A stretch of DNA of 64,000 nt from NCBI GenBank assembly GCA_041946805.1, contig JBHGBC010000001.1, forward strand, positions 96,001-160,000, in the 5' to 3' direction. Source of the stretch: a bacterium. GTDB taxonomy: Bacteria > Hinthialibacterota > Hinthialibacteria > Hinthialibacterales > Hinthialibacteraceae. Positions 6,429-64,000 of this stretch are shown here, one piece after another. Position numbers and translations under genes: made by a program. The first letter of the stretch is position 1. The number at the start of each line of letters is the position of its first letter. The notes below the pieces were generated by a model. The model was given only the letters and a program-made list of their open reading frames with translations, made no database searches and was not told where the DNA came from.

Positions 6429-8987
<2,559 letters not shown>

Positions 8988-10466: not shown

Positions 10467-10625
10467 ATCCCTCCGGCCATCCCCTGCCTCTGTCTCCATC
10501 CCCCCCATCCTGGGATCCCCTTGCCAAAATACCCAAACAAATATAAGAATGACTAGATTTATATAACAACTCATCTTTGATTCATCCCCCAGATACAATC
10601 CTTCGCGAAACAGGAAAGGCCGATC

Positions 10626-47191: not shown

Positions 47192-48184
47192 TCACCCGCC
47201 GCTCTCCACACGGATCTTCTTCCGTTTCATCTGCGTCAGCCGGTGGTGCCGCAGGCTGTCCATCATCACCGCCAGGAAGATGATGGCGCTGGTGATGAGC
47301 GGGTAGAGGTACGGGTCCGCGTTCATGATCACCAGGCCGTTCTCGACCGTCTGGATCAGCACCGCTCCCAGCACCGTTCCGGGGAACACATGGCCGCGCC
47401 CGCCGAACAAACTGGTCCCCCCCAGCACCGCCGCGGAGATGGCCGCGAACTCGCGCTGCTCCCCGAACTTGGGCGAGACCGCGCCCAGCTGGGCGACCGA
47501 GACGATCCCGCTCAAGGCCGCCAGCGCGCCGCAGATCAAATACACGCTGAACAGGACCGCCCGGGTGTCGATGCCCGCCTTTTGCGCCACATCCAGATCA
47601 TAACCGGCCGCGTAAATCCTCCGCCCGAAAGGCGTCCGTTCCAAAACGATGTACGCTCCCGCCAGGACCAGCAGAAAGATCAACACCGGCACGGGCAACC
47701 CGGCGATCCGCGCCGTCCCCACGCGCACCAGGCCGCCGGGAAGGTTCATCGCCCGCGTTTGCGAAATCCAAAGTCCCAATCCCCTGCCGATATACTGCGC
47801 CGCCAGGGTCACGATGAAAGGTATCAGCCCCATCCGAGTGATCAACCACGCATTCACGCCCCCGCACGCCAGCCCCGTGATCAGGGCCGCCGCGAGCACC
47901 CAAGGCAACGCGTAGCCGCTCAGCACCATCTTGCCCGCGATGACCGCCGAGAGGAACATGATCGATCCGATCGAGAGATCGATGCCCGCCGTGAGCAGCA
48001 CGAAGGTCATCCCAATCGCAGCGATCGCCATCGACGACGATTGGATCAGGATATTCACGAAATTGCCGAACGTCAGGAACGCTGGAGATTGATACCCGAA
48101 AAACGCCACGCCCCCCCCGGCCAGGACGATCGGGACCAGGTTTTGACACAGGAACCTCCGGATCATTTGTGGAAAGCGTGTCAC
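47192..48184 (-). CDS. Sugar ABC transporter permease (RbsC family)
   Basis: Motifs GMTFVLLTAGIDLS, PFIVTL, TPFGRRIYAAG and AAVLGGTSLFGG.G. Confidence 0.92.
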   Translation of the reverse strand: MTRFPQMIRRFLCQNLVPIVLAGGGVAFFGYQSPAFLTFGNFVNILIQSSSMAIAAIGMTFVLLTAGIDLSIGSIMFLSAVIAGKMVLSGYALPWVLAAALITGLACGGVNAWLITRMGLIPFIVTLAAQYIGRGLGLWISQTRAMNLPGGLVRVGTARIAGLPVPVLIFLLVLAGAYIVLERTPFGRRIYAAGYDLDVAQKAGIDTRAVLFSVYLICGALAALSGIVSVAQLGAVSPKFGEQREFAAISAAVLGGTSLFGGRGHVFPGTVLGAVLIQTVENGLVIMNADPYLYPLITSAIIFLAVMMDSLRHHRLTQMKRKKIRVESGG

Positions 48185-49698: not shown

Positions 49699-49720
49699 CG
49701 TGTCCCGTGTTCCCTTCCCC

Positions 49721-50752
49721 TTACCGCCCTTCCCGAATCCGGACCCGCACGGCGTCCAGCAGCGCCGCGAAGAGGATGACACCGCCCTTCACCATCATGA
49801 TGACAAAAAACGTCAGGCCCAGCATGGTCAGCGTATTATCGATCAGTGTGATGAACAACACGCCGTACACGGTCCAGGACACCTTGCCTTTCCCGCCGAA
49901 CAGGCTGGTCCCGCCGATCACCGCCGCCCCGATTACGTCCAGCAGAATCTTATCCCCCAGCGTGGGCGAGCCGGTCTCGATCCGCGCCGTGTACAAAACC
50001 GCCGCCGCCGCCCCGCAGAGGCCGCTGAACGTGTACGCGAACCAGATCGTCCCACTCACCGGCACGCCGGAGACACGCGCAGTCTTCGGATTGTGACCCA
50101 CCGCGTACAGCCACCGTCCCAACACCGTGCAGTGGAGGAGGTAATGCCCCACTCCCGCCACCCCGGCCGCGATCCATAAGGCGTACGGGATGCCCAATAT
50201 CCCGCCCGATCCCAGCGCGTTGAACGCGGGCGGCAGGTTGAAAATGTTGCGGGACTGGGTGAACCAGATGGCGGATCCCCGGAAGAACATCATGGTGGTC
50301 AAGGTCACGATGAAGGGAGGCATGCGGAACAATGTTATAGCCGCGCCGTTCACGAGACCCATCGCCAGGCCGGTGCATCCCATCACGGCCACGCCCAATC
50401 CGGCCGCCAGGGGAGTCCCCGGTGTGTAAAACGAATTCTCCCCGGTCATCACCGCCGCGCCCATCACGCTGGCCAGGGAAATTGTGGACGTGACCGACAA
50501 ATCGATCCCCGCCGTGATCAGCACGAAAGTCTGCCCCACCGCCACGATCAACAACGGCAAGAGGTTGGAAAACAGGTTGCGTAGATTACTAACCGTGGCC
50601 AGGCTGGGCTGGATCATGACCAAAAGCAGAAAATACGCCACGCTGACGTACAGGATGAAATATTCCGGCAGCAGGAACGATTTCCACCGCTCACGCAGAG
50701 CGGCTAAGAAAACCATCGCCGGGGAGGAAGAAGGAGGATGTTTTACGTCCAT
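49721..50752 (-). CDS. Sugar ABC transporter permease (RbsC family)
   Basis: Motifs GQTFVLITAGIDLSV, PPFIVTL, GRWLYAVG.N and AAVIGGTSLFGGKG. Confidence 0.92.
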   Translation of the reverse strand: MDVKHPPSSSPAMVFLAALRERWKSFLLPEYFILYVSVAYFLLLVMIQPSLATVSNLRNLFSNLLPLLIVAVGQTFVLITAGIDLSVTSTISLASVMGAAVMTGENSFYTPGTPLAAGLGVAVMGCTGLAMGLVNGAAITLFRMPPFIVTLTTMMFFRGSAIWFTQSRNIFNLPPAFNALGSGGILGIPYALWIAAGVAGVGHYLLHCTVLGRWLYAVGHNPKTARVSGVPVSGTIWFAYTFSGLCGAAAAVLYTARIETGSPTLGDKILLDVIGAAVIGGTSLFGGKGKVSWTVYGVLFITLIDNTLTMLGLTFFVIMMVKGGVILFAALLDAVRVRIREGR

Positions 50753-50780
50753 GCGGTTGGTCTGCGTGAATCCCCCAAGT

Positions 50781-50983
50781 CCCCTCTTCCTCTGGGAGAA
50801 GGTCAGGGTGAGGAAATATTTGCCGGGGCGGACCTGGCTTACTCAGCCAGGTTCGTCCTCCCATCCCGTAGGGGCACGATGCAATGTGCCTCTACTATAC
50901 ATTCGGCTCACCCGGAGGTTCGCCCTCCCGTTCCTCGCCACGGCCCTTGGCCTTTAAGGGAGGGCGAGGCTCCCGCCGGGCCG
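50781..50983. repeat. Dense REP mosaic: family B (50781-50813), family D (50868-50895) and an inverted family F pair (50904-50929 / 50958-50983)
   Basis: GTAGGGGCACGATGCAATGTGCCTCTAC; CGGCTCACCCGGAGGTTCGCCCTCCC paired with GGGAGGGCGAGGCTCCCGCCGGGCCG. Confidence 0.8.
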
Positions 50984-51015
50984 GCTGTTTTGGCATGGTT
51001 TATGAATGGGGCGCC

Positions 51016-52068
51016 TCACCGGGCCATATTCGCCCCCCACATGCGCGGCGCCATCTCCTGGAGGTTGTCCTGGTGAATGACGAAACCCGGATCCCGGATC
51101 ACGGTGGGGACTTCCTTCCCGGCCCGCAGATCGAGGATCGCCTGCACCGCCCGGGAACTCTCGAAAGCCATATCCTGCACTCCGTCCGCGTCCAGATAGC
51201 CGTCCACCAGCAACTGATACGCGGCCGCGTCTCCGTCGAATCCCCCCAGCATCACATGCCCTTCTTCCCTGAAGGTTTTGTATTTCCCCGCGGTCTTCAG
51301 GGCCGAGACGATCGCCGGCAGATGCAGATCGGACGAGGTGAAGATGAAATTGATGTCTGGATTGGCCTGCAGCGCGTTGGTCACTCCGGCCAGGGCTTTT
51401 TCGTTGTTCCATTCCGCCGGCACGCGCTGGGTGTCCTCGATCACGTCCGCGTATTGCTTGATGACCTCGTCATAGCCGTCCCGCCGTTGGATGGCGTTGA
51501 TGTCCCCCAGGTCGCCAATGAGGATCATGGCCTTGTATTTCCGCCCCGACGCTTTCGCCTGGTCGGCCATATAGGTCACCGTGGCCTTGGTGATCTCCTT
51601 GTTGTCGGCCACCACGGTCACCGATTTCGCGCTGCTCTCCGCCGGGGGACGGTTGTACAAGACGATGGGGATGCCGGCCCGGTTGGCCTCCTTGATCATC
51701 TTCACCACGCTCTGCGCGTCCTTCGGGGCAATGATGATGCCATCTACCCCCTGGGCGATGAAATTGTTAACCTGCTCGAACTGGCGGTTGGCGTCGTTGT
51801 CGGCGATGGCCTCCACCACCCGGATGTTCCGCTTCTTGAGTTCCGCCCGCATGGTCTCGATGCTCGCCACCCAATACTCTGTCTGCAGGGTGTCGAAGGC
51901 CACGCCAATGGTAAGATCCGTCCCGGGCGTCTCTCCACTATCCGGAGGATTGCCGCATCCCGCCAGCCACGCGCCGCCCGCCAGGGCCGCCGCGCCGAGG
52001 CTGTTGCGCAATAATCCCCGCCGGGATATCCCGTCCCCCCCGGCCTGGTGGCGCGTTGTGTGTTCCAT
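51016..52068 (-). CDS. Sugar ABC transporter substrate-binding protein, Tat-exported lipoprotein
   Basis: GAAGGGG RBS, SRRGLL twin-arginine motif and WLAGC lipobox; RbsB-type motifs FIAQGVDGIIIAP, AGIPIV, RRDG and GFDG. Confidence 0.88.
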   Translation of the reverse strand: MEHTTRHQAGGDGISRRGLLRNSLGAAALAGGAWLAGCGNPPDSGETPGTDLTIGVAFDTLQTEYWVASIETMRAELKKRNIRVVEAIADNDANRQFEQVNNFIAQGVDGIIIAPKDAQSVVKMIKEANRAGIPIVLYNRPPAESSAKSVTVVADNKEITKATVTYMADQAKASGRKYKAMILIGDLGDINAIQRRDGYDEVIKQYADVIEDTQRVPAEWNNEKALAGVTNALQANPDINFIFTSSDLHLPAIVSALKTAGKYKTFREEGHVMLGGFDGDAAAYQLLVDGYLDADGVQDMAFESSRAVQAILDLRAGKEVPTVIRDPGFVIHQDNLQEMAPRMWGANMAR

Positions 52069-52229
52069 GTCCCCTTCTCCCACACGAGGGAAAGCGGCTC
52101 CCTCTGAACATCCGTTCATGCTTGAACAGTCTCTCATACGGTACGGAGGATTGCCGGGTGTGTCAAGGTTCAATCCCGGGAATAGCGAACGAGGGGAGAG
52201 GATTGATTCTTTGCGGTTGTATTGCACGT

Positions 52230-52353
52230 GTCATCCCCGCGCAAGCGGGGATCCAGGTAATCGGCTCCTGGGGAAGAGCGACGCTCCCTCCGAGCCGTTG
52301 GCTTCCACAATGCGGCTGGCATAGTAGCGGCTCCCCTGGTGAATCGCCTTCCC
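52230..52353. repeat. REP mosaic: family E (52230-52256) plus an inverted family F pair (52271-52297 / 52328-52353)
   Basis: GTCATCCCCGCGCAAGCGGGGATCCAG; GGGAAGAGCGACGCTCCCTCCGAGCCG paired with CGGCTCCCCTGGTGAATCGCCTTCCC. Confidence 0.7.
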
Positions 52354-52578
52354 ATTCCGTGCAAGAAATGGCTAGCCAAGGATTTGAAATGAACGAAAAT
52401 TATTAGTACGTTGATCGGTGAGAAGCATGATCCTCTATAAAGAATGCGACGGACCTTGATCCAAGCCCATGGCCGCCGGAACGTATCAACCAAGGCTCTT
52501 CCGGCAAGCGCGTCACTTTTTTACCCGATGCCCGGTCCGCCTCTCATCGAGGTGATCGAGGTGAAACACCCCAAAATT

Positions 52579-52634
52579 CCCTCTCCCTCTGGGAGAAGGA
52601 GTCTATTCATCTCATACAAGGGTCAGGGGGAGGG
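52579..52634. repeat. Family B REP interrupted by a short insertion
   Basis: CCCTCTCCCTCTGGGAG-AAGG-agtctattcatctcatac-AAGG-GTCAGGGGGAGGG. Confidence 0.55.
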
Positions 52635-52794
52635 CGCTTTCGAATGGACCTTGGGATTATCCATCCTACATGGAAGTGGATTGAACCGCATTGTCAGTAA
52701 CATGTACACACTTTCCGGATGCGCCATAAAAAAGCGCCGGGACTGACACGAAACAGCCCCTCGATTCGTATTATAGAGTAGTATAGAGATTCCC

Positions 52795-54345
52795 ATGACG
52801 CCTGAGCTCGAGTGCTGTTACCGGGACTGTCTGAGTGAGAACCAAAAACTGGAGATCGATGCATCTGTCCGGGAAGGAGAAGTTTTTGTCTGTCCATGTG
52901 AAAGAAAACGAGTGGTGGTTTGGCGCGATACTGGAGAAAAGAAGGTTCTCTTCCCACTCGGCCAGCGCTATCATCCCCTGACAGGCCAAGTACTTACGAA
53001 TAAACCGCCGATCATCTCGCAATTCCGCGGCGAATCCCGGGGCGGCTTGGGATTTTGGGAATCCAGCGCGGACGATCTCCCCGATTTGACCTACGATCCT
53101 TTCCCCGTTCCACCCGCGGCCGGCAATATTGCCCCCTTGCACCACGATATCCTCCAAGTCCCTCCACCCGCTGTCGGGGGAAGTTACCTCGCCCACCGGG
53201 CCTTGGACGCGGCGCAGTGGTATTTCTGGTCCCTGGCCACGGGACGGGTGGCGCTCCAGGTATCCGGGGGGGAAGGCTTGGGTCTGGCCGCCGCGCCCAT
53301 CGGCGAAATCAGCGGCCTCGGACTCTTGGTCAAACCGGATGAGTTCCATCATTACGCCGTTCTCCCCGATCTGGATCCCAATCCCTTGATCATTAAGTTG
53401 TCATCGCCCGCCTGTCCCAACGCCGCCCCGTTGATGACCGCCCAGATCCGGACCGGAGAGGATGCTTTTGAAGCCCGGAAAGTGTTTGTCGCCGCCGCAA
53501 CCGGGCTGCACTGGTTCGATTTCAACGCGTGCCCGGTTCCGGGCCAAACCGTACGCTTCCAGGAATGCCAGAACTGGACGGGTGATCCCCGGTTGTTTTG
53601 GTCTCCCGTGTATTTTCCGGATGCGAATGAATACGGGACCGGGGCGGTGGTGACCTTCCACGCGAACGGCTGGGCGTATGTGACCTGGCTGGACCGCCGG
53701 GGCGTTCCCGCGGGGGCGGACTCCATTCGCATCGCGGAAGGCGACGGTCATGTCCTGTTGCCGCCCGTGGTGACGCGCGACGGCCTGTGGTGCCTCACGG
53801 TCTCACCCCGGTCCGCCCGGATCGGACTGATCGGCAGTCCCGGCCTTTTGCGCAATCCTCCGGACTGGCGCAACGCCGGCTGGTTTCCCTGGATCATGGA
53901 ACCGGAAGACCCCATTCCGGCCGATGCCTGGGCCTGGACTCCGCTGGTGGCCGACAGCCGAAGGATGCATGGCGCCGGAATCAGCCGTGTGGTCTTTTTG
54001 CATAACCGGGAACTGGTGTTCCTGGACCGCAACCGCTTGAATCTCGACCGGGGCAGCCGGTTTTCCACCATCCATCCCAATCCGCTTCCGATAGGATTCA
54101 AGGCCGGCGCGGCGTTCGCCCGGGCGCGGAAGGAACATATTTTCCTGTTCGATCTCCTCACGGGCCGCGTCTGCCTTTTCGACGCGCGGAACCGGACCTG
54201 GACCGAACACGCGGCTTTGAATCCGGCGGTATTGTCGAATCTCCTGGGCGGGCCGGTCTGGTGCGGAGATAGTGTGATCTGGCCGACACGCACGGGATTG
54301 CATAAAATCAAGATTCATACAAATCATGGGGTGGCCGCGGGATGA
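52795..54345 (+). CDS. Hypothetical protein with a Cys-rich N-terminus and a probable beta-propeller (PQQ-like) body
   Basis: N-terminus CCYRDC...CPC...YHPLTG. Recurring blade-like segments (WSPVYF, LPPVVTRDGLW, WTPLVA, GGPVWCGDSVIW, SLATGRV, DLLTGRV). ATGA overlap with the next gene. Confidence 0.6.
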   Translation: MTPELECCYRDCLSENQKLEIDASVREGEVFVCPCERKRVVVWRDTGEKKVLFPLGQRYHPLTGQVLTNKPPIISQFRGESRGGLGFWESSADDLPDLTYDPFPVPPAAGNIAPLHHDILQVPPPAVGGSYLAHRALDAAQWYFWSLATGRVALQVSGGEGLGLAAAPIGEISGLGLLVKPDEFHHYAVLPDLDPNPLIIKLSSPACPNAAPLMTAQIRTGEDAFEARKVFVAAATGLHWFDFNACPVPGQTVRFQECQNWTGDPRLFWSPVYFPDANEYGTGAVVTFHANGWAYVTWLDRRGVPAGADSIRIAEGDGHVLLPPVVTRDGLWCLTVSPRSARIGLIGSPGLLRNPPDWRNAGWFPWIMEPEDPIPADAWAWTPLVADSRRMHGAGISRVVFLHNRELVFLDRNRLNLDRGSRFSTIHPNPLPIGFKAGAAFARARKEHIFLFDLLTGRVCLFDARNRTWTEHAALNPAVLSNLLGGPVWCGDSVIWPTRTGLHKIKIHTNHGVAAG

Positions 54346-56108
54346 GCCGATCGAAATCCGAAACACGCGTGTATTGCACAACATTGCTCCTGACTGTCCT
54401 GCTGGGAGGAGCGCTCCTGGCGGCGCCCGCGGCCCGGCCGGGTGCCGAACCGTTCGCCCGCCGGGTCATTCTGCTGTGGGACGGTTCGCAAAGCATGGTG
54501 AAACGCCTGGACCGGGAGAAAATCCCGCCGGCGACCGTTTGGATGGCGCGCGACACCGACCTGGAACGCCTGGAACGGTACGTTTATGAGCTGCTGTTCC
54601 ACGATTCTCTCCCGCCCGTCACGGACCGGGACATGATCGATACGCATACGAAGGCCCCCACGCCTCCCCTTCCCCTCGCGGATGAAAACACCCTCCTGAC
54701 CGCCTACCTCTTCAACAGCGAGCGCGCTCCGAAGTTTTCCATGCGGCGGGAGATCCTGCCTCCCGGTCCGGACCGGGAAGAGCGGCTGCGGCAATTTCTC
54801 CCCCGCCCGAACCAGGCGGATCCGCGATACATGGGCCTCGAAACCAACTTGGTGCGGCCCCTGCTGGAGGCGGTTTATGATCCGGAAATCACCGGCCGGA
54901 TCGTCCCCCATACGGACCAAACCTACCTGGTGATGGTCACCGATGATGTTCAGGAATCATTGGAACCCTACACGGATCAATCCGTCGTGCAAAAGCATCT
55001 TGAACTGGATCACCGCCGTCAAAAATTGCTGACGTACGTGGTGAGCTGTCAACCCAGCCTTCTGGAAAAAAGCCATCAGATTCTGATCAGTCTCTACCAA
55101 ATTTTTGACAAACCGATCGCGGCCACCCCCACGCCATTGGTCACCGCCGCCGCGGCCACGCCCACTCCCGAATCCACCCCCACACCCGTACCGGATGCCG
55201 GCCCTCCCCCTCCGGCGGTGATCAAGGCCGTCATCCCGCCCGATGGCCTCGCGGTCCTGCTGGAGGACGGCCGCCTGATTTCTTCCCCCTTCCGCGTGGA
55301 GGTGGATGGGAATCCCAGCCGCTCCGCCCCTCTGCCATCCCTCGACGCGAGCCTGCTGGATCAAGGAAATAATGTGATTGCCACCGGCCGCCTCGAGTTT
55401 CCGAACGCGACGGCCTTGCCCGCGGAAGGCCGCCTGGTCTTCGCCACGTTTTCCGAAAAGGGGTGGCCCGCCGCGGGACGACTAGCCTTGCCGGCCCCCG
55501 CCGCGGACAACCAGTGGATTCAAGGCGTGAATCCCCTCCAGTTCCCCGCGCGCTTCCAGTCGCATGAATTGCTATGGCTGATGGCGGGACTCCTGGGATT
55601 GGCCGCGGCCGGCTCCGGCGGTTTGGCCTACGCCCGCTGGCGGTTGGCGCCGCCCCGGAGCGTGCGGATTCAATTCACGTTGAATCCCAACAGCGCCGCC
55701 GCGCGCAAGCTGAAGCCCCTGGTCCTCCAGGCGGACGAGCCGGTGACCTTGGGAGAAGACGAACGCGCGGATGGCCCCGCTTTTCCCGTGAATTGCGAAC
55801 CGTTGACCTTGGTCTACGAACGGGGGTGGTTCTCGGGGAAGGTGCGTATCTACAATGAGGGAGTCTCGGCGCTGGATTCCACCGGTCCGGACGAGGAATG
55901 GGCCGGGGAATCCATCGGCGCGCCCCCCCGCGAGTGGACGATTCCCTTGAAGCAAGACGAGGGGGGCAGCCGCCTGATCGTTCTCCGGGAAGCCGATTCC
56001 GGTTCCCGGACATGGGAGGTCCGCGTGGAGGCCCGGCCGGGCGAGACCATGGCCGGCGCGGAGGGTTCCGGAAAAAACTGGGAATACGAAGGGCCGGCAG
56101 GAGGTTGA
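54342..56108 (+). CDS. Membrane-anchored vWA-domain protein
   Basis: Signal peptide; MIDAS residues VILLWDGSQS, ETNL and LVMVTDD; Pro/Thr linker; beta domain; TM helix LLWLMAGLLGLAAAGSGGLAYA; cytoplasmic beta-rich tail. Confidence 0.72.
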   Translation: MSRSKSETRVYCTTLLLTVLLGGALLAAPAARPGAEPFARRVILLWDGSQSMVKRLDREKIPPATVWMARDTDLERLERYVYELLFHDSLPPVTDRDMIDTHTKAPTPPLPLADENTLLTAYLFNSERAPKFSMRREILPPGPDREERLRQFLPRPNQADPRYMGLETNLVRPLLEAVYDPEITGRIVPHTDQTYLVMVTDDVQESLEPYTDQSVVQKHLELDHRRQKLLTYVVSCQPSLLEKSHQILISLYQIFDKPIAATPTPLVTAAAATPTPESTPTPVPDAGPPPPAVIKAVIPPDGLAVLLEDGRLISSPFRVEVDGNPSRSAPLPSLDASLLDQGNNVIATGRLEFPNATALPAEGRLVFATFSEKGWPAAGRLALPAPAADNQWIQGVNPLQFPARFQSHELLWLMAGLLGLAAAGSGGLAYARWRLAPPRSVRIQFTLNPNSAAARKLKPLVLQADEPVTLGEDERADGPAFPVNCEPLTLVYERGWFSGKVRIYNEGVSALDSTGPDEEWAGESIGAPPREWTIPLKQDEGGSRLIVLREADSGSRTWEVRVEARPGETMAGAEGSGKNWEYEGPAGG

Positions 56109-56114
56109 AAAACG

Positions 56115-56510
56115 ATGCAAGCGATTCTCAATCAGATCCACCCGTTTGGGGTGGCCTTGTGGATGATCGGAGGCTTGGCGGGAGGCCTGTTTATCCTCCA
56201 ACTCGCCCTTCCCCGGGGCCGGGCGGGGATCCGGGGCACGCCCGAATCGCGGGTGTATCTCTGGACGATCAACTTCCTCCGGCTGCATCTGGCGGCGGGC
56301 ATCGTGCTCGGGGTGTATGAATATATCCAGTGGTTCACTAAACTGGGCATGACGGACCATTTTTACGACTGGTGGCCCATGTTGCTGATTTACCTGGCGT
56401 GCCTGGCCGTGGATTTCGCCCTGCTCCGGCTGTTGTTCACGTCCAAATACCGGCGGTATCTCCAATCCGCGGACCGCCTGGGGAAAACGGGAGGCCAAGA
56501 ATCATGGTGA
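56115..56510 (+). CDS. Small integral membrane protein (3 TM)
   Basis: GGAGG RBS, three hydrophobic segments; overlaps the start of the tubulin-like gene. Confidence 0.75.
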   Translation: MQAILNQIHPFGVALWMIGGLAGGLFILQLALPRGRAGIRGTPESRVYLWTINFLRLHLAAGIVLGVYEYIQWFTKLGMTDHFYDWWPMLLIYLACLAVDFALLRLLFTSKYRRYLQSADRLGKTGGQESW

Positions 56511-59500
56511 CGCCCTCGGTTTACATCGGCTTGGGCACTTCGGGGACGGAAATCATCCAGGGCGTCCGGCGTTTGTTGTACGATGAATACGGCGTGCCCG
56601 GCCTGCCCTGTATCCGTTTTCTCAGCCTGGAAACCCATACCAATCTCCCCTCCACGGACCAGGATGTCTACGTGCGCGACGAAAACCAGGCCTGGCAGCA
56701 ACTGCAGGTCATTTCCCTCGCCCTGACGCGCATCCAACTGCAACAATTGCGATCCCGGATCGATCCCTCCGGCCAGGAGTATCACCCCGGCTGGGCCGAG
56801 TGGCTCGATCCCCAGGTGCTCATGGGGACCGCCTTCACCACCGGTGCGCGGGGCTGGCGCATGGCCGGCCGCCTCTGCCTGTGGGCCAATTGGCGAAACG
56901 TGTACGAGGGATTGATCCAAACCATCCAAAGCGTCATCCAAGGCCGGGACGAAACGATCTCCTTGCTGGAGAGGCATTACGCCACGAAAGGCATCAACCG
57001 GCCCGACGGCGACCTGGTGGAACCGGCCCTCCGTGTTTACATCTGCGGATCGCTGTGCGGCGGCACGGGTTCCGGCATCTTCTGGGAGACCGGCTTCCTC
57101 GCGCACGAAGCGGTCGCCGACGCCGCCGTGGGGCACGATCCCGACATCCATGGCGTTTTCACCGTGGTGGACCGCAAAACCGCCAACAGCCTGCGCCAAT
57201 CCGATATCGTCTGCTCCATGAACTGCTGGGCGGCGCTGCTGGAATACGACTACTGGGCCAGCGGCCAAAACGCCTATCAGGTCCTGCATCCCCTGGATCC
57301 CAACAGCCGGTTCCCGGGCATCCCCAACGATTTCGGCCCCTACCAGGTCTTCAACATCATCTCCCCCTCCAACGACAGCGGCTACCGTTCCGTCAGCTGG
57401 AACGGACAGGACTACGACCTGACTCCGCTGCACGTCTCCATCTCCACCTCGCTCTACTTGGACCAGGTGCGTGAAGTGAAAGCCCGCAAGGACGGCGACC
57501 GCGCGCAATACGCCATCACCAACCAGATCAACAAAAAATCCCCCAACGGCCTCTACCGCCAGCGCATCCAGACCTATGGCTTGTCCGGATTCTACTATCC
57601 CAAGTTCATGATCGCCTCGGCGGCCGCCTGCCAACTGGGTAAGGAACTCGTGGAACACTGGTGCGGGGAGGGCAACCGGAACAACGCCATGCGCGCCGCC
57701 CACCGGGATTGGGAAGAGATCTACCTCCTCATCCGTTCCCAACTGCTGCGCGTCGGAAACCTGGATTTCATCGAACACATGCGCAATCACCTGCAGGACG
57801 CGTTCGACAGCATCGGACCGAAGAACCTGCAGGCCTTGATCAACTACCTGAAAACGCAGGTCCACGTCCCGGTGCTGCCCGGCGCCCCGCTCCTCCTCGA
57901 GGCCTTGCAGCCCAACGGCGCGCTCCACCGCCATTTCGACCAGGAAGCCAACAGCCTGATCACCCTCCTGGTGACGGAAATCACCAAAAAAGTGGAGCAC
58001 CATATCAACGCCATCCAATCCGGGGGAACCACCAGCCTGGACGAAGTCGTGCAATACCTGGAGGAATTGCCCCAGCGGATGCGGGAGACGATCAACGGCC
58101 TTCCCGGCCCCGCCGGCTTGCGGGCGTTCCATATTCCCTGGCCTTCCCTCCGGGGGATGGCCCTGCGGTTCGGCGAGATCAGCAAGGACTGGTGGCTGAA
58201 GGCCACGTTCTCGCGGAAGGCGATCCAGAAATACTACCTCGCCAAGGCCCTCGAGGAGGTGCAGGAAAAGGTCAAGGAGCAGATCAACCAACTGGCCGAC
58301 CGGGTGACACGGATGATTTGCGAAAAAGCGCTGCCCCGCGTCATCGGCGACTCCGGTCTGGGCGGGTTCCAATCCTCGACGCTGTACGACGACAACCGCG
58401 AGCGGTTGAACCGCCTCCGCAACCGGATCGCGCCCGCCCTGCAAAACCGCTGGCAGGACATCACCCGCGAGCGCACCTTCGGCAGCCTGCGCATGGTCAC
58501 CAGCCGCGATACCATCGCCCAGGACGCGGAACTCCTGGCCAACGCCGTGCGCGCCCGCCTGCGCCCCGCCGAAGTCTACCGCGAACTGCTCACGGACGGG
58601 ACGCAATCCGTGAGTTTCTATCATTTCCTTTGCCAGGAAGCCGGACAGATCGAACAAAAACTGATTCAGTACTACCAGCCGGAATGCTGGCGGGCGGCGC
58701 AATCGGTCAATATCCTCAATCAATTGGCCACGGACCGCTATTCCCTGCAAACCTTGCTGGAAACCGCCCGCGGTTCCCATCCCTGGCTGCAGTTCACCGG
58801 CGGCCAGGTCCCCGACAAGGGCTGCGACGAACCGGATATGATCATCGGGCCGCGGGGATCGGAAGCCCGGCTGAACCAAATCGTCAACCAAGTGCGGACC
58901 CAGGATGACAACCTGCCCGCATTTCAGCCGGTGGAGGGCATCCTCGACAACATGGTGGTGTTCTACCACGAGGCGGCCGCGCTCTCGCTCCAGGATTGGC
59001 AACTCGAATCCACGCTGGACAACCTCCTGCAGCACGGGGGACGGACGGAAACCGACGACCCCGTCATGACCCCGTTCAATAACCATTACACCCACAAGCT
59101 GGGTACTCTCCGCTATCATCCCAAGCTGCGGCGGATCATCGCGGATTTGAATTTCTGGATCGAGGCCGCCACCCTCTTCCGGGAACCGATGCTTACCCAG
59201 GATTTTCTCTACCTCGATCCCCAAAACGGGCATCTCACCTACGTCTATACCTCCAAGATGGGCCTGCGGGACACCGTGGACCTGACCGTGGAGGGCGAGA
59301 TCTCCGAATTCGCCCGGGCCGATGACGGCGAGGCGGCGCGCGGATTCATCGAACGCGTGCGGGAAGTGCTCAATGACCTGGGGCGGGACAACGTGGAAGA
59401 CCTGGGTAACGCCTTGTGGGAGGCCCAGGCCGATGACCGGAATCAACAACGGAAGATCAAGGAAACCACCGAACGGGTAATCCACCAATTATTTCCCGGG

Positions 59501-59563
59501 GAATCGCGGAGGCGGACGGAAAAAACGCCCCCGCCGGCCCTCCCCCCCCGCAACGAACCATGA
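56504..59563 (+). CDS. Tubulin/FtsZ-like GTPase (Tubulin_2/FtsZl1-type) with a long helical C-terminal extension
   Basis: GGAGG RBS before MVTPSVYIGLGTSG; GARGWRMAGR; tubulin signature GSLCGGTGSG (57047-57076); 1019 aa. Confidence 0.85.
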   Translation: MVTPSVYIGLGTSGTEIIQGVRRLLYDEYGVPGLPCIRFLSLETHTNLPSTDQDVYVRDENQAWQQLQVISLALTRIQLQQLRSRIDPSGQEYHPGWAEWLDPQVLMGTAFTTGARGWRMAGRLCLWANWRNVYEGLIQTIQSVIQGRDETISLLERHYATKGINRPDGDLVEPALRVYICGSLCGGTGSGIFWETGFLAHEAVADAAVGHDPDIHGVFTVVDRKTANSLRQSDIVCSMNCWAALLEYDYWASGQNAYQVLHPLDPNSRFPGIPNDFGPYQVFNIISPSNDSGYRSVSWNGQDYDLTPLHVSISTSLYLDQVREVKARKDGDRAQYAITNQINKKSPNGLYRQRIQTYGLSGFYYPKFMIASAAACQLGKELVEHWCGEGNRNNAMRAAHRDWEEIYLLIRSQLLRVGNLDFIEHMRNHLQDAFDSIGPKNLQALINYLKTQVHVPVLPGAPLLLEALQPNGALHRHFDQEANSLITLLVTEITKKVEHHINAIQSGGTTSLDEVVQYLEELPQRMRETINGLPGPAGLRAFHIPWPSLRGMALRFGEISKDWWLKATFSRKAIQKYYLAKALEEVQEKVKEQINQLADRVTRMICEKALPRVIGDSGLGGFQSSTLYDDNRERLNRLRNRIAPALQNRWQDITRERTFGSLRMVTSRDTIAQDAELLANAVRARLRPAEVYRELLTDGTQSVSFYHFLCQEAGQIEQKLIQYYQPECWRAAQSVNILNQLATDRYSLQTLLETARGSHPWLQFTGGQVPDKGCDEPDMIIGPRGSEARLNQIVNQVRTQDDNLPAFQPVEGILDNMVVFYHEAAALSLQDWQLESTLDNLLQHGGRTETDDPVMTPFNNHYTHKLGTLRYHPKLRRIIADLNFWIEAATLFREPMLTQDFLYLDPQNGHLTYVYTSKMGLRDTVDLTVEGEISEFARADDGEAARGFIERVREVLNDLGRDNVEDLGNALWEAQADDRNQQRKIKETTERVIHQLFPGESRRRTEKTPPPALPPRNEP

Positions 59564-62500
59564 GCGAGAACCGCGTGGAACGCTGTCCCTGCGCCTTGCG
59601 CTGGCCCGTCAATCCGGCCACGGACTTCTATTGCGGCTTTTGCGGGCGGCGGATGCGCGCCTTGGAGGCGGTTCCCCTTCCCAAGGTCCAAGCTCCCTGG
59701 ATCATGGGAGGTGAATTCCTGCAAGTCGATCTCGAGATCCGCAACACGGGCCTCGTGCCGCTGACCGTCACCGGCCTGGAGTGGGTCTCGCCCCGGCCGC
59801 CGGAGCCCGGGATTCTGGCCGCCGCGCTGCCCAATCCCCTGGCTTTGCCGCCCCAAACGGAGAGCCATGTCTCTCTGCGGGTGGCCATGATCCCCGAGGC
59901 CAAATCCCGGACGAAAATCGTCCTACAACTCCGCCTCGGGCCCGCTGACACCGGCCCGGGCCGCGTCCAGCTGAATCCCATCGAAATCCCCCTCGCGCCG
60001 CCGCCCCGCGTCGAAGTGTCCGGACTGCAAGAGGGGCGGATTCTCCCCGTGGAACGCCTGGAGGAAAGTTTCACCCTCTCCCTGACGGCCGCCGATCAGG
60101 ACATCATGCTGGCGGAGGAAAACCAGGTCGTCCTCAAGACGCGGGATGGGAAGGAAGAAGTCCCTCTCGATCCGGCGGTCCCGGTCTCCCTCCGCCTGCT
60201 GCGCTCCCGCCAGCCGGTGGAGTTCCAATTCTCCTCCCCGGCCGCGCTTTTCCCGGGCCAGACACGGGACCGGGACGTTTTCGTGGCGTTGCGGATCCAG
60301 GGTATGGCAACCCCCGTCCGGACGGATATCTTCACCCTGCGCAAACAGATCCCCGCCGAATTCACCCTGCAGTTGGAACTGCCCGACGGCATGACGCCGC
60401 GGGTGCTCAAGGGGTATCAGCGTTCGTTCGGCCTCCTCCTGCTCAACCGGAGCCCGCGGATTTTCTCTCTGCAAAAGATCACCGTCGACCTTCCGGCGTA
60501 TCTGCGCGAACAAGGTCTCCTGGCCCATGTGCTACCTGCACGGACACCGCCTTTCTTCGTCGAGAAAGTCAAACGGATCGAACTGGGAACCCTGGTGTTG
60601 AACACCGAACGTTGGTCGGGCGGCAGCACGCGCAGTGAGATCCGGATTACCGCCGAAGTGGAAAACGGCCCGGCGGTCCACACACCCTTGCCCATCCACA
60701 TCGTGGTCTCCCGGCCGGACTACAACCGCCCCCTGGGTATCGACTTCGGCAACACCAACACCTCGGCGGCGCATTTCGACGACCGCAATCTGCCCCTGGT
60801 GATTCCCCTCACCCCGCTGGTTCATTGGCCCAGTTTGCGCAATCAATCCATCAACCCCCACGTGGTGGCCACTCTCGTGCAATACGCGCCGGCCGGAGAC
60901 AGCGATAGCGATTGGACCGCCCAAAGCGTCCGGGTGGCCGATGTGGGCGAACCGGTCCGCGCCCGGATGAAGCAAAACCCCATCCACGGGCGGCGCGTGG
61001 TCAGCTTTTTCAAGCCGCGGATCGGCTTCGGCGAGGCGTACCGCTTCCCCTTGATGCCCGATGTCCGGAACAAAACCTTCGATTCCGTCACCGCCGACTA
61101 CCTCCAGCGTGTGTTGTTGGCCGTCGAGGAAGAAACCGGGCTGACCCACCGCCGCCTGGTGCTCACCCACCCCGTCCGCTTCTGGACCCGCCAGCGCGAA
61201 GCCTTGCGGGCGGCCCTGTTCCACGCCATCCGGGAGCGGAAGGAGGATCCGGAAGAGTGGACGGTCTCGTTTCTCGACGAGGCCACCGCCGTCATCCTGT
61301 ACCATACCATCGGCCGCTACGTGCTGGGCCATGCCGTCCCGGAGGAAGGACCGGCGGAACAGGAAACCGTCCTGGTTTTCGATTTCGGGGGCGGAACCAT
61401 CGACATGACGCTCTGCGAAGTCTCCCGCGATCTCGAAACCGGCCATTGTTTGATTCGCCATCTGGATTTCGACGGCACGGGGGAATTCGGCGGAGAACGG
61501 ATTACCGAATTGATCGCCCAGCGGCTCTACGAACGGGCCTGCGAGGCCGCCAACGGCCTTGAAAGCCCACGTCCAGGCGAATCTCCGGGCGCGGCCGTGG
61601 CTCTGCGGGAAAGTGGGGAAGAAATCTTCGGCGGGAAGAAAAAAAGCGGGAAATCCTCCGCGCCCGCCAAGTTTCACCATGCCGTGAACACCAAATCCGG
61701 CGCGGTGGTGATCCCCTACGGCCGCTGGGACGTGTATCCCACGGTATGGGACCAGCACACCAAAACCGCGATCGACAATTACGTCAAATTGTATTATGGA
61801 GCCGAGGATCTGAAAATCGACAGCCTCGATCCCAGCGAAAACGAAGCCGGCGATCCCGCGGTCTTCGATCAAATCGACCGGCAGTTTGAGGTCACCACCG
61901 TGCCGGCCAACGACAACCACGCGCCCCCGGTCCGGTTCTCGTTCCCGTACCGGTTCAAGAACGACCGGGACGGCTTGAAACAAGCCGTGCTGACCGGCCT
62001 GGAAGGGGCGCTGGAGATGGTCCGCAAAATGATCGGCCGCTTCCGCGAACGCGCGCGCCTCGAGGGAAATCCCCTTCCCCGCCTCTCCCGCGTGCTGATG
62101 AGCGGCCAATCGAGCCGCCTGCCCTTTATTCAGGAGGCCCTGCGGCAGGCGGTGCAAGAAGCCAACGAGGGGGAACCGGTCGAAGTGGAACTGCTGAATC
62201 CCCTGAAAGAAGCGGTGGCGCTGGGGGCCGCCATCTACGGCGCACTGGATGACCTGGCGCAGGTGGAGATGAACCGGTGCGGCCGGGTGCATATTTTTCT
62301 GCAAAAGCCTGGGGGCGCGATCGGGGCCGGCGCGTTTGTCCCGGTTTTCCGCCGCTTGTCTCCCCTGCCCGCCACCGTGATCTGTTCCTCGATAAACCAG
62401 GAAGGCGCCATTCATTATCCGTTGTATTACGGCATGCGGATCCGGGTGATCGAATCGTTTGTGGATCTCTCGGACCGGCGGGAACTCAATCAGGCGGTCC

Positions 62501-62712
62501 TCGATCAAGATTACCGGGTGTTGGCGGAGATCCCCGTGACTCCCCCCGGCTGGAATCACGGAGACATCCGCGGTGCGGCGTTGAAAATCACCTTCTCCGA
62601 GGATGAGCAAATCACCGTGACGCTTGTCCCCGGCGCTTCCACGGCATCCCGCGTCGAATCCGTCCGGATCTGGCCCCGCCCGGCTTCGGAGCCGCGCGGC
62701 CGGGCGGAATGA
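59560..62712 (+). CDS. Atypical Hsp70-family ATPase with an N-terminal Zn-ribbon and Ig-like domains
   Basis: CPC...CGFCG and LEIRNTG..PLTV (Ig-like). Hsp70 motifs LGIDFGNTNT, FKPRIG, LTHP, LDEATA, VFDFGGGTID, FGGERI, LMSGQSSRLP and EAVALGAA. Confidence 0.85.
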   Translation: MSENRVERCPCALRWPVNPATDFYCGFCGRRMRALEAVPLPKVQAPWIMGGEFLQVDLEIRNTGLVPLTVTGLEWVSPRPPEPGILAAALPNPLALPPQTESHVSLRVAMIPEAKSRTKIVLQLRLGPADTGPGRVQLNPIEIPLAPPPRVEVSGLQEGRILPVERLEESFTLSLTAADQDIMLAEENQVVLKTRDGKEEVPLDPAVPVSLRLLRSRQPVEFQFSSPAALFPGQTRDRDVFVALRIQGMATPVRTDIFTLRKQIPAEFTLQLELPDGMTPRVLKGYQRSFGLLLLNRSPRIFSLQKITVDLPAYLREQGLLAHVLPARTPPFFVEKVKRIELGTLVLNTERWSGGSTRSEIRITAEVENGPAVHTPLPIHIVVSRPDYNRPLGIDFGNTNTSAAHFDDRNLPLVIPLTPLVHWPSLRNQSINPHVVATLVQYAPAGDSDSDWTAQSVRVADVGEPVRARMKQNPIHGRRVVSFFKPRIGFGEAYRFPLMPDVRNKTFDSVTADYLQRVLLAVEEETGLTHRRLVLTHPVRFWTRQREALRAALFHAIRERKEDPEEWTVSFLDEATAVILYHTIGRYVLGHAVPEEGPAEQETVLVFDFGGGTIDMTLCEVSRDLETGHCLIRHLDFDGTGEFGGERITELIAQRLYERACEAANGLESPRPGESPGAAVALRESGEEIFGGKKKSGKSSAPAKFHHAVNTKSGAVVIPYGRWDVYPTVWDQHTKTAIDNYVKLYYGAEDLKIDSLDPSENEAGDPAVFDQIDRQFEVTTVPANDNHAPPVRFSFPYRFKNDRDGLKQAVLTGLEGALEMVRKMIGRFRERARLEGNPLPRLSRVLMSGQSSRLPFIQEALRQAVQEANEGEPVEVELLNPLKEAVALGAAIYGALDDLAQVEMNRCGRVHIFLQKPGGAIGAGAFVPVFRRLSPLPATVICSSINQEGAIHYPLYYGMRIRVIESFVDLSDRRELNQAVLDQDYRVLAEIPVTPPGWNHGDIRGAALKITFSEDEQITVTLVPGASTASRVESVRIWPRPASEPRGRAE

Positions 62713-62727
62713 AGGAGGAGCCCGCCG

Positions 62728-63762
62728 ATGGGCGTTTTGGCTGTCGATTTCTGCCAGGTTCCTCCCCAATGGGCGGACCACGAAGGCCGAACCGGCCAGG
62801 CGCAGGATGGCTGGTGGGGTATCCCGCGGAACGGCGGTATCGCCTGGGACCAGGACGTGGACTCAAAAAGAGATACCGAATCCAGCGGAGAGAAATCCTT
62901 CATCGCCCACCCGGCCCAGGCGGTGGATTCCATGCCTCCCGCGAGCGCCGGGACGGCCCTCTACCCCCTGTTCCGCCGTGTGTTCGCGGCCCGGCCGGGG
63001 AGTGGGGACGAGTGGCTGGTTTTATTGCTCCCGGCGGGCGCGTCTCCCGCCAGCGGAGCTTCCTTGCGGAACTCGGCGCGGCGGGCGGGATGGCCGGGCC
63101 CGGTTTTTCTCACGGACGGCGCGGTGGCGCTGGCCCTGGCCCACGCCTGGAAGAAATCCCGCGCGGCGGCCGTCTTCACCGTGCTGCGGGACCGGATCTT
63201 GGCCGTGGAAGGCTCCTTGATGACCGTCCACGCGAGTGGAAACACGTTGGCGGCGGAGTTGGTGTGCCAATGCCGCCGGGAGGATAAAAACGAAACGGTC
63301 CGCGTGATCCGGGAGACAGGATGGGATCCCGGCACGGTAATGGATGGCTCTTGCTTGGATCCTTCCCGCGGTTCTCTGGAGAACGTGGCCCGGATGATGA
63401 ACGAAACTCGCGGGGGGAAAGTGATATTGGAAATAAAAAGGATGGGTGTCTTGGGAACGCGCGCCCGGCAATGGGACTTGTGCCCCCTGATCGGCGAGGA
63501 CGCGCCCGTCACCGCCGCCCGGGAATACGAGCTCCAAGCCGGAAAAGACGCTCTGGCGGCCTTGGAATTTTGGTTTGGCTACAATGCGTCGGCCTTGCAC
63601 CCGCTCGCCGGAATCCGCTTGACCCGCGGCCGCCTGGATCCGGCCCCGGCCAAAGCGCGGTGCCGCGTGGTCCGGCGATTGAACGGCGATGTCCAGGTCA
63701 CGGCCGAATGGAACACCGGAAGCGAAAGCCGGGACCTTTCGTTTCCGATACTCTGGCTCTAA
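62728..63762 (+). CDS. Degenerate Hsp70/actin-fold-like protein
   Basis: AAGGAGG RBS. VLAVDF (phosphate-1 remnant) and LLLPAG...LRNSARRAGW...FLTDGAVALALA echo Hsp70 ITVPA...AGL...INEPTAAALA; C-terminal RLNGDVQVTA. Confidence 0.5.
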   Translation: MGVLAVDFCQVPPQWADHEGRTGQAQDGWWGIPRNGGIAWDQDVDSKRDTESSGEKSFIAHPAQAVDSMPPASAGTALYPLFRRVFAARPGSGDEWLVLLLPAGASPASGASLRNSARRAGWPGPVFLTDGAVALALAHAWKKSRAAAVFTVLRDRILAVEGSLMTVHASGNTLAAELVCQCRREDKNETVRVIRETGWDPGTVMDGSCLDPSRGSLENVARMMNETRGGKVILEIKRMGVLGTRARQWDLCPLIGEDAPVTAAREYELQAGKDALAALEFWFGYNASALHPLAGIRLTRGRLDPAPAKARCRVVRRLNGDVQVTAEWNTGSESRDLSFPILWL

Positions 63763-63774
63763 GGAGGGGGGATC

Positions 63775-64000
63775 TTGCGAGGCGATAATTCATACAGTTC
63801 GTTTTCCGGCGGTTCGCCATCTTATTCCAAACAGATGACCGACAAGCAATTTATTTTGGAGTACAGCGTCACTCCCAAGTCGTCCAAGTATCCCAACCTG
63901 TTATGGAAAGGATTTCAGGTCCTGACCGAGGAACGAGAAGACCATACGATCGAGTGCGCGCTTTCGGTGCCCCGGTTCATCAACAACCTCAAGGTCATCA
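63775..64000 (+). CDS. Next gene of the operon, 3' end outside the window (hypothetical)
   Basis: AAGGAGGGGG RBS, then TTG start (alternative ATG at 63835). Frame is open to the window end: ...MTDKQFILEYSVTPKSSKYPNLLWKGFQVL... Confidence 0.6.
   Translation, partial: MRGDNSYSSFSGGSPSYSKQMTDKQFILEYSVTPKSSKYPNLLWKGFQVLTEEREDHTIECALSVPRFINNLKVI

Follow-up and report, generated by a model that had tools for sequence, protein, structure and literature searches.

The locus described here is a real and rare operon of ten genes (g1 to g10), all encoded in the same orientation on the forward strand, which runs over about 16.5 kb from position 52795 of the window (the whole stretch of 64,000 nucleotides that was analysed) to the equivalent of position 69273. 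At the level of protein domains it is made of a module A (g1-g6), composed of a Zn-ribbon protein (g1), a surface vWA protein, a small membrane protein, a tubulin-like GTPase and a pair of Hsp70-like proteins, and a module B (g7-g10), composed of a GrpE-like protein, an orphan and a ZorAB-like stator pair. We read this two-module accessory operon as an envelope-sensing, nucleotide-driven machine, most likely a conflict or defence system, with a confidence that falls a little short of even. Its parts correspond to those of two predicted systems: the FtsZl1-vWA operons described in 2010, and the DO-GTPase systems of 2020 with their tubulin and HSP70-GrpE themes. The operon is a variant of such gene sets, for which there are as yet only computer predictions; it lacks the defining GTPase and has a Zorya-type stator in addition.

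Operon organization and genomic surroundings

All the junctions reported in the first-pass annotation were re-found in the sequence (Table 1). Genes g1/g2 and g4/g5 share ATGA overlaps at 54342 and 59560, g3 and g4 overlap by 7 nt at 56504, and the remaining junctions in the window are short gaps provided with ribosome-binding sites: 6 nt with GGAGG ahead of g3, 15 nt with AAGGAGG ahead of g6, and 12 nt between g6 and g7 where GGAGG is followed by the TTG start of g7 at 63775. The genes named in that annotation are all on the forward strand and have a coding-type GC3 of 0.71-0.83. The operon had been expected to continue past the window edge, and the downstream sequence (L002) indeed adds the rest of g7, then g8, g9 and g10. 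A spacer of 221 nt containing a dispersed repeat separates g7 from g8; g8 and g9 overlap by 7 nt, the true start of g9 being the ATG at L002:4845, and g9 and g10 are joined by an ATGA overlap. The statement that no grpE gene is nearby was wrong, since the GrpE-like g7 belongs to the operon and sits immediately past the window edge.

Table 1. Features of the ten-gene operon; positions are those of the window unless prefixed by L002 (downstream sequence)
Feature	Position	Strand	Basis
Divergent intergenic region 5' of g1	52228..52794	.	gene calls
g1, 516-aa cytoplasmic protein, Cys-rich N-terminus	52795..54345	+	conserved in G016, G019, G013
g2, 588-aa membrane protein with periplasmic vWA	54342..56108	+	Atlas, DxSxS motif, transmembrane scan
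g3, 131-aa small membrane protein	56115..56510	+	hydropathy scan
g4, 1019-aa FtsZl1/Tubulin_2 GTPase, long C-terminal extension	56504..59563	+	PF13809
g5, 1050-aa Zn-ribbon Hsp70-like ATPase	59560..62712	+	PF00012, NCBIfam DnaK, motifs
g6, 344-aa degenerate Hsp70	62728..63762	+	AF2, Foldseek, VIA
g7, 511-aa GrpE-like protein	63775..64000, continues to L002:3310 (window-equivalent 65310); L002:1775-3310	+	Pfam GrpE sub-threshold, motif
g8, 439-aa orphan	L002:3532-4851	+	no assignable fold
g9, ZorA-like MotA/ExbB protein	L002:4845-6575	+	PADLOC ZorA3, Pfam MotA_ExbB, PDB 8vvi_F
g10, ZorB/MotB-like protein	L002:6572-7273	+	PADLOC ZorB3, Pfam OmpA, PDB

On the 5' side lies a divergent operon on the minus strand (47192-52227) with a sugar-type ABC transporter, and on the 3' side g10 faces a convergent TPR/FG-GAP gene. 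The intergenic region ahead of g1 contains, at about 52497-52600, a dispersed repeat of ~100 nt with 137 other copies in the genome (G000), and the single sigma-70-like promoter match found in this region is oriented the opposite way. The genes flanking the operon are metabolic, and neither a defence island nor mobility genes were found among its neighbours. G000 encodes a canonical FtsZ elsewhere and a canonical DnaK-GrpE pair on contig C265, which indicates that the operon is not the housekeeping set.

Surface vWA protein and tubulin-like GTPase

The protein encoded by g1 displays a conserved cysteine pattern (CC..C..C.C) at its N-terminus. It had been described as propeller-like, a reading which found no support: g1 has no sequence match in Pfam, NCBIfam, PADLOC or PDB, and the Atlas gave leads only, all below 0.9. 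The exported vWA protein proposed for g2 was confirmed. From its N-terminus, g2 comprises a hydrophobic segment, a periplasmic vWA domain (~38-256), a Pro/Thr linker, a beta-rich region, a transmembrane segment (410-428) and a cytoplasmic tail of ~160 aa. All ten Atlas structure rows are VWA clusters (TM 0.52-0.59), the feature matches are likewise VWA, and the DxSxS motif of the MIDAS (D47xS49xS51), T168 and D201 are invariant in the three sequences compared; the Pfam search of g2 returned no match, VWA included. The product of g3, 81% identical to the congener copy and 50% to the copy of G019, is a membrane protein as previously proposed, but a simple hydropathy scan gives two clear transmembrane segments and only possibly the third one that had been counted.

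The identification of g4 as a giant tubulin-like GTPase is firm, with a match to Tubulin_2 (PF13809) over residues 6-383 at 4.6e-31 (108.8 bits for a cut-off of 27). Its signature GSLCGGTxSG, which we take to be the T4 loop (the glycine-rich, GGGTGSG-type signature of tubulin and FtsZ), is invariant in all four aligned sequences. Both its length, which fits the ~1000 aa of FtsZl1 proteins, and the position of the vWA gene two genes 5' of it recall the FtsZl1 family.

Hsp70-like pair and GrpE-like protein

The reading of g5 as a Zn-ribbon Hsp70 was also upheld. Its front part is a Zn ribbon and a beta-rich, Ig-like region; the Hsp70 nucleotide-binding domain (NBD, ~390-900) and a C-terminal beta domain of ~145 aa follow. 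It matches PF00012 at 24.6 bits (cut-off 20.6) and the NCBIfam DnaK profile at 5.9e-8, and the beta-rich region (residues ~40-385) has no match in Pfam. The motifs GIDFGNTN, FDFGGGT, GQSS and EAVAxG are invariant in four of four sequences; the phosphate-1, phosphate-2 and adenosine motifs are thus all kept and g5 is putatively ATP-competent. With just ~145 residues after the NBD, a long helical lid is not apparent.

Because sequence profiles fail to link g6 to Hsp70, its assignment as a degenerate Hsp70, made in the first-pass annotation, holds at the fold level only. An AF2 model computed from a 9-row alignment (pLDDT 87.1, pTM 0.86) shows a shrunken NBD (~1-235) followed by an SBD-beta-like domain (~236-340). 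Nearly all the Foldseek matches listed for this model are chains of the Hsp70/Hsp110 family (best E 7.2e-13), and VIA aligns 301-306 residues with DnaK (model 1-340 to DnaK 2-504, Z 15.2). Where Hsp70 has its GIDLGTT and DLGGGT loops, g6 reads VLAVDFCQVPP and VFTVLRDRIL: both phosphate-binding loops are lost while the fold is kept, and g6 is read as a catalytically dead mini-Hsp70. Only 8 representatives of g6 were found among 1.84 billion proteins.

The third component, g7, has a C-terminal domain resembling GrpE, preceded by a coiled-coil-like stretch and, at the N-terminus, by a region without assignment. Its match to Pfam GrpE (PF01025) reaches 18.3 bits where the cut-off is 25.8; three of its paralogues, at 20.4-20.5 bits, are likewise sub-threshold, and in the PDB g7 matches the GrpE chain 8gb3_E at E 0.15. 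All seven sequences compared share the motif PLG.EL..V..GD.FDP..H ... RG in their C-terminal part. No DnaJ family match was found in g1-g10 by the Pfam search.

ZorAB-like stator pair

PADLOC, against which the earlier suspicion of a conflict system was checked, recognised the pair formed by g9 and g10 and nothing else in the operon; for g1-g8 it gave no match at E <=0.1 except one chance-level PDC-S37 row, and neither Pfam nor PADLOC revealed a nuclease, a toxin or any other effector of the classical kind among the operon proteins. The ZorA-like g9 matches two PADLOC ZorA3 profiles (1.3e-14 and 5.8e-11, the second covering residues 188-516) and Pfam MotA_ExbB (7.3e-5); its sole PDB sequence match is the type II ZorA chain 8vvi_F (6.5e-4). 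It has three transmembrane segments and a long cytoplasmic tail of ~370 residues after the last of them. Its partner g10 is made of one transmembrane segment and an OmpA-type peptidoglycan-binding domain (PADLOC ZorB3 5.8e-19, Pfam OmpA 1.9e-12), with an Asp at the beginning of the transmembrane segment that is invariant in 7/7 sequences. In sequence, this peptidoglycan-binding domain resembles MotB (3.6e-14) more than ZorB (8vvn_B, 5.3e-6).

Distribution and conservation

Among the 35 genomes of the phylum, g5 is present in four, and all four also have the g7-g10 module. A word-limited search among 5.8 billion proteins gave only 5 protein clusters. The complete set of ten genes is conserved in the congener G016 and in G013, and a metagenome contig (L106) carries the congener set with g1-g10 contiguous. 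As gene order and content are kept in related genomes, the arrangement is not due to chance. The operon site of the congener differs, the G000 orthologues of its flanking genes being on other contigs (C68 and C235), and the operon proteins of the two congeners are 60-90% identical versus 82-93% for eight flanking ORFs. In G019, modules A and B are on separate contigs (C104 and C179) and may therefore work apart. In the G013 copy, g1, g2, g6 and g8 are disrupted by frameshifts or a stop, which points to decay or else to assembly error. Stand-alone g7-like genes occur in G013 (C88) and G011 (C58). The rarity, the changed site and the fast divergence suggest an accessory element.

Comparison with known systems

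The link drawn in the first-pass annotation with the FtsZl operons of Makarova and Koonin and with GTPase-centred conflict systems proved apt, as shared parts were found with both. With the FtsZl1-vWA operons the present one shares a FtsZl1 protein of ~1000 aa encoded behind a vWA membrane protein, as well as the presence of OmpA-type proteins. Supplement 5 of PMC2875224 lists MotA/TolQ/ExbB and OmpA next to FtsZl1 in Deinococcus, sets of the vWA-FtsZl1-B7-MotB type in cyanobacteria, and neighbours that are DnaK-like (1626 aa, Magnetospirillum) or annotated as GrpE (1083 aa, Chloroflexus); in its main text, Hsp70, DnaK and MotA have no occurrence. The stator and chaperone partners appear singly in separate lineages there, whereas they are all combined here, with neither kinase nor P-loop GTPase.

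With the ZorA-ZorB core of Zorya (PDB 8VVI, 8VVN; PMC11890865, PMC11946911), the operon shares a MotA/ExbB-type subunit and a single-transmembrane partner. According to PMC11890865, ZorAB function needs the proton-relay Asp, peptidoglycan binding and the tail, and an Asp, a peptidoglycan-binding domain and a long tail are all present in g9/g10. In contrast to Zorya, none of ZorC, ZorD, ZorE, ZorF and ZorG was detected by PADLOC in g1-g8, and the stator is encoded with a tubulin-like GTPase and with proteins of the Hsp70 type. The likeness to the DnaK-GrpE cycle lies in g5, with all the Hsp70 nucleotide-binding motifs, and in g7, which ends in a GrpE-like beta-domain motif; however, the operon has no J-protein, g5 has an extra Zn-ribbon/Ig-like front and no apparent helical lid, and the dead mini-Hsp70 g6 stands alongside.

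Proposed role and alternative explanations

In the conflict or defence machine that we tentatively favour, a disturbance of the envelope (phage entry, damage to the wall or a ligand, for example) would be sensed by the vWA head together with the stator-like pair. The ZorA-like tail would be turned by ion flow through the peptidoglycan-anchored, proton-driven stator and the signal would pass to g8 and g7. The GrpE-like domain of g7 would reset the Hsp70-like g5, with g6 as a non-catalytic partner, and g5 would govern how the tubulin-like g4 assembles with GTP at the membrane, g2 and g3, and perhaps g1, serving as its anchors. The output would be a local remodelling of the membrane or envelope, or growth arrest. 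A more precise version, which we regard as doubtful, is a new class of Zorya-like immunity in which the ZorAB-type motor, the GrpE-like adaptor and the Hsp70/pseudo-Hsp70 pair drive a tubulin-like polymer under the membrane, with no nuclease. If this were true, the polymer would physically block or wall off the phage, or arrest the cell, and bacterial defence would possess a cytoskeletal effector arm.

The PADLOC gap, the absent effector and the metabolic neighbours count against this machine, as do the separated modules of G019, the disrupted genes of G013, the sub-threshold GrpE match of g7 and the lack of an assignable fold for g1 and g8. The most serious alternative, somewhat unlikely in our view, is a physiological envelope or cytoskeletal machine without conflict role, in which a filament placed by the stator and the vWA adhesin would shape membranes, vesicles, appendages or attachment. 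Membrane remodelling was the 2010 proposal for the vWA-FtsZl1-OmpA operons (PMC2875224), no recognisable toxic effector was found in the operon, its neighbours are ordinary metabolic genes, and in a second phylum Tubulin_2 is widespread (107 of 301 genomes). The gene set is nevertheless rare in its own phylum (4/35 genomes), its site is not the same in the two congeners, its divergence exceeds that of the flanking genes, and one copy (G013) looks broken. Accessory or conflict genes show such patterns more typically than core physiological genes do, although the patchy distribution and fast divergence may also fit a niche-specific envelope function. Membership of the GAP1-N2 DO-GTPase conflict systems (Kaur, Burroughs, Iyer and Aravind 2020; PMC7159879) is far less probable and largely refuted. 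Those systems are defined by one or two TRAFAC-clade DO-GTPases and also include a GAP1 protein and an FNIII-repeat protein. Shared with them are a tubulin homologue with a C-terminal extension (helical in those systems), a vWA membrane protein whose head is extracellular, an HSP70 accompanied by GrpE, a further, reduced HSP70, and the prediction of an NTP-driven conflict machine near the membrane. The three accessory themes are, however, called non-overlapping in PMC7159879, and two of them, tubulin with vWA and HSP70 with GrpE, alternatives there, co-occur here. A ZorAB-like stator is added, MotA, MotB, TolQ and ExbB being absent from the main text of that paper, and neither a DnaJ nor a TPR fusion was detected. 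Above all, there is no DO-GTPase among the ten proteins: none has a conserved Walker A (GxxxxGK[ST]), the lone match lying in a low-complexity linker of g5 that is not conserved, or a GTPase family match in Pfam or NCBIfam.

Also improbable, if less so than membership of the DO-GTPase systems, is the explanation by two independent neighbours, a vWA-FtsZl1-Hsp70 module (g1-g6) and a GrpE-like/orphan/ZorAB-like module (g7-g10). The separate contigs of G019, the repeat-bearing gap of 221 nt between g7 and g8 and the stand-alone g7-like genes of G013 and G011 are in its favour. Yet module B is found in four of the four genomes with module A, and in G019 it is the g6-g7 junction that is broken and not the g7-g8 gap, which leaves the GrpE-like gene with the stator even though g5 is the partner expected for it. 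The cluster L159 of the second phylum again brings together, in the same orientation, an Hsp70-like gene, Tubulin_2, MotA_ExbB and OmpA, and the Hsp70-like proteins of this phylum match g5 by profile comparison with a probability of 99.2% (E 3.2e-19).

Organization and boundaries of the operon

The locus is real and larger than first reported. The window covers 96001-160000 of contig C1 in the source genome. Seven same-strand ORFs, with a coding-type third-position GC of 0.71-0.83, run from position 52795 to the end of the window. The tight junctions reported in the first-pass annotation, namely ATGA overlaps at 54342 and 59560 and a 7-nt overlap at 56504, are exact when checked against the sequence, and the other in-window junctions are spaced by 6, 15 and 12 nt, a GGAGG-type site lying ahead of every one. 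Its proposal that the operon continues beyond the window edge was borne out by the downstream stretch (L002, of which position 1775 is window position 63775), which carries g7 to g10. Given the divergent operon upstream and the convergent gene downstream, the unit comprises ten genes over about 16.5 kb, referred to here as module A (g1-g6) and module B (g7-g10).

A dispersed repeat of about 100 nt with an internal inverted repeat occurs three times in and around the unit. It has 137 further copies in the source genome (G000) and dozens in its congener G016 and in G019, another operon carrier of the phylum, and it looks REP- or MITE-like. The short ORF overlying its first copy is probably not a gene.

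Coordinates of the operon genes, their surroundings and related loci (positions without prefix are those of the window; L002, downstream stretch)
Feature	Position	Strand	Remark
Sugar-type ABC transporter operon	47192-52227	minus	divergent, upstream of g1
100-aa ORF	52444-52746		overlies the repeat
Repeat, upstream copy	52497-52600
g7	63775 to L002:3310		TTG start; followed by a 221-nt gap holding the repeat
Repeat, g7-g8 gap	L002 ~3470-3510
g8	L002:3532-4851		orphan
g9	L002:4845 (start)		ATG start; 7-nt overlap with g8
g10	L002:6572-7273		ATGA overlap with g9
Repeat, after g10	L002 ~7393-7441
TPR/FG-GAP/ASPIC gene			convergent, downstream of g10
VWA_2-Tubulin_2 locus	L103 (G001:C46) 8223-14517
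Stand-alone g7-like gene	L108 (G013:C88) 9260-10747
Stand-alone g7-like gene	L109 (G011:C58) 76-957

Predicted proteins of the two modules

The majority of the domain calls of the first-pass annotation hold. The g1 protein, then called propeller-like, has a Cys-rich N-terminus and no assignable fold, its PDB sequence search returning chance rows only. The same search was equally uninformative for g2, which has no Pfam match; for residues 38-256, nevertheless, both the feature and the structure comparison with the ESM Atlas point to VWA clusters only (structure: TM 0.52-0.59, 10 of 10 rows), and the MIDAS DxSxS motif is invariant. Its two hydrophobic segments predict an extracytoplasmic vWA head and a cytoplasmic tail of 160 residues. 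Two clear TM segments are present in g3. The g4 protein matches Pfam Tubulin_2 (4.6e-31) and its tubulin signature GSLCGGTxSG is kept in all four relatives. The Pfam HSP70 cut-off is narrowly cleared by g5 (24.6 vs 20.6 bits), whose nucleotide-binding motifs are all invariant in the four relatives and are preceded by a zinc ribbon (CxC...CxxC) and a beta-rich stretch of about 350 residues.

The assignment of g6 as a degenerate Hsp70 is right at the level of the modelled fold, while sequence methods give no tie to Hsp70: hhalign probability was 0.1% against g5 and 0.2% against 29 DnaK sequences, a PDB sequence search gave chance rows only, and Hsp70 is absent from the eight relatives recovered by exhaustive HMMER among 1.84 billion representatives. 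An AF2 model from a 3-row alignment (pLDDT 42) was discarded; adding these eight relatives raised the pLDDT to 87. The resulting model matches Hsp70 structures (Foldseek E 7e-13; VIA Z 15.2), in which the nucleotide-binding domain (NBD) is covered by residues 1-235 and the beta substrate-binding domain by residues 236-340. Both phosphate loops are lost. A conserved P-loop of the P-loop GTPase kind was found in none of the ten operon proteins.

In module B, the C-terminal domain of g7 is GrpE-like, scoring under the Pfam cut-off in all four paralogues tested, and its GrpE-like motif is conserved in 7/7 sequences. Pfam and PADLOC profiles give no family for g8. PADLOC matched g9 to the ZorA profile (1.3e-14) and g10 to the ZorB profile (5.8e-19), and the sole PDB sequence match of g9 is a type II ZorA (8vvi_F). 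An Asp at the start of the single TM is found in all seven g10 sequences, together with a MotB/OmpA-type peptidoglycan-binding domain. The predicted complex between the g5 NBD and the GrpE-like end of g7 scored 0.00, a "no answer" that is evidence neither way.

Relatives in a second phylum

Proteins of the FtsZl1/Tubulin_2 type are widespread, being encoded by 8 of the 35 genomes of this phylum and by 107/301 genomes of a second one (that of genome G440). Twenty Tubulin_2 loci of the latter were chosen non-randomly, on long contigs and across the score range: an Hsp70-like gene lies within 9 kb in four of these chosen loci and a MotA- and/or OmpA-like gene is present in three, and in one of the twenty (L159) Hsp70-like, Tubulin_2, MotA_ExbB and OmpA genes form a single same-strand cluster, the last two coming after Tubulin_2. 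The Hsp70-like proteins of this phylum are homologous to g5 (hhalign 99.2%, E 3.2e-19, 556 columns). Hhalign gave no significant match of g1 to the Zn-ribbon proteins (0.1%), of g2 to the protein encoded ahead of the small protein (0.6%) or of g7 to the coiled-coil proteins (8%, E 0.0043), and the g7 alignment had one match at 1e-8 in the 301 genomes. At four loci (L155, L157, L158 and L159) Tubulin_2 is preceded by five genes in a recurring order: the first product is Hsp70-like (~800-860 aa), the next two carry a coiled coil and a double zinc ribbon, and the last two are a protein of ~405-475 aa and a small protein. In a further phylum (that of genome G035), the g4 alignment had no match at 1e-10 among 401 genomes, which are small and in which such a long query may miss relatives.

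Relation to known systems and possible role

FtsZl1 and its vWA/OmpA operons were defined by Makarova and Koonin 2010 (PMC2875224), whose neighbour table lists, next to FtsZl1, single cases of MotA/TolQ/ExbB with OmpA, of a DnaK-like and of a GrpE-annotated protein, neighbours which go undiscussed in the parts of the text available. The DO-GTPase systems of Kaur et al. 2020 (PMC7159879) display either a tubulin and vWA theme or an HSP70 and GrpE theme, sometimes with a second HSP70; the accessible sections are silent on MotA/MotB-type proteins. The operon does not qualify as one of these systems, whose defining GTPase was not detected among its ten proteins, nor as Zorya, whose soluble partners were not detected either. 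Zorya defence, according to the available part of PMC11890865, depends on the Asp, on binding to peptidoglycan and on the tail of ZorA; tubulin, FtsZ, vWA and Hsp70 are unmentioned in the portions at hand of this paper and of PMC12505986 on Zorya/MotAB. In the literature searched, nothing relevant combined ZorA, ZorB and tubulin, and no experimental test of any FtsZl1/Tubulin_2 operon was found. The operon is a variant of computationally predicted systems and not categorically new.

Its genes are coupled and co-conserved in a single bacterial family, with an accessory-like distribution and a partial recurrence in another phylum. Our tentative reading is a role in conflict or defence. In such a machine, the stator-like pair (g9, g10) and the vWA head of g2 would sense the envelope, the GrpE-like protein would connect this motor to the Hsp70-like ATPase, and the latter would govern how the tubulin-like protein assembles at the membrane. 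Rather unlikely, in our opinion, is a physiological role in the envelope or cytoskeleton, to which the commonness of Tubulin_2 in the second phylum would lend itself. That two unrelated systems merely lie side by side seems improbable: the modules are on separate contigs in G019, but both are found together in 4/4 genomes (G000, G016, G013 and G019), so that they co-occur, yet can be unlinked.

One co-transcribable unit would bring together four kinds of parts: a polymerising GTPase, an Hsp70 set, a surface vWA head and a Zorya-type motor. The Hsp70 set would itself consist of a putatively ATP-competent Hsp70, an exchange-factor-like protein and a dead paralogue. The operon offers a concrete candidate wiring diagram from an ion-driven envelope sensor to cytoskeletal and chaperone-type machines. 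With a defence role, Zorya-type sensing would reach to an effector other than a nuclease, and a physiological role would make the operon a new bacterial membrane-cytoskeleton system.

Distribution and mobility within the phylum

The g5 gene was found in 4/35 genomes of the phylum, all of one family. G016 carries g1-g10 across two contigs, and the operon is found again, in one piece, on a metagenome contig (L106). In G013 (L011/L105, G013:C140), g1-g10 are accompanied by a tandem second GrpE-like gene; g1, g2 and g6 are fragmented and g8 holds a TGA, reflecting either decay of sensor-like genes or assembly errors, and g4, g5, g7, g9 and g10 are intact. Word-limited protein searches returned five clusters for g5 among 5.8 billion proteins, and four close and about nine distant relatives for g4. 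A metagenome scan with the g4 alignment gave one locus, from a congener; the contig scan with g5, based on motifs generic to Hsp70, gave 80 loci, none with another operon gene, and is therefore uninformative on distribution.

The orthologues of the congener operon flanks lie on contigs C68 and C235 of G000, away from its operon, the regions flanking the G000 operon are found on two separate contigs of G016, and DNA similarity between L106 and G000 is confined to the operon. Between congeners, the operon proteins share 60-90% identity (g7 60, g2 63, g6 65, g10 90) and eight flanking ORFs 82-93%.

Away from the operon, G000 also has canonical genes for FtsZ and for a DnaK-GrpE pair, the latter on C265. 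Three more adjacent Hsp70-GrpE pairs are located on contigs C260, C21 and C36, while C179 and C252 carry additional Hsp70-like ORFs (830-890 aa). The stand-alone g7-like genes of G013 and G011 are outside tubulin operons, beside unrelated genes. At L103, in a different genome of this phylum, the VWA_2 and Tubulin_2 genes are directly followed by HTH_17 and phage-integrase genes, suggesting that this FtsZl1-vWA pair may ride an integrative element.
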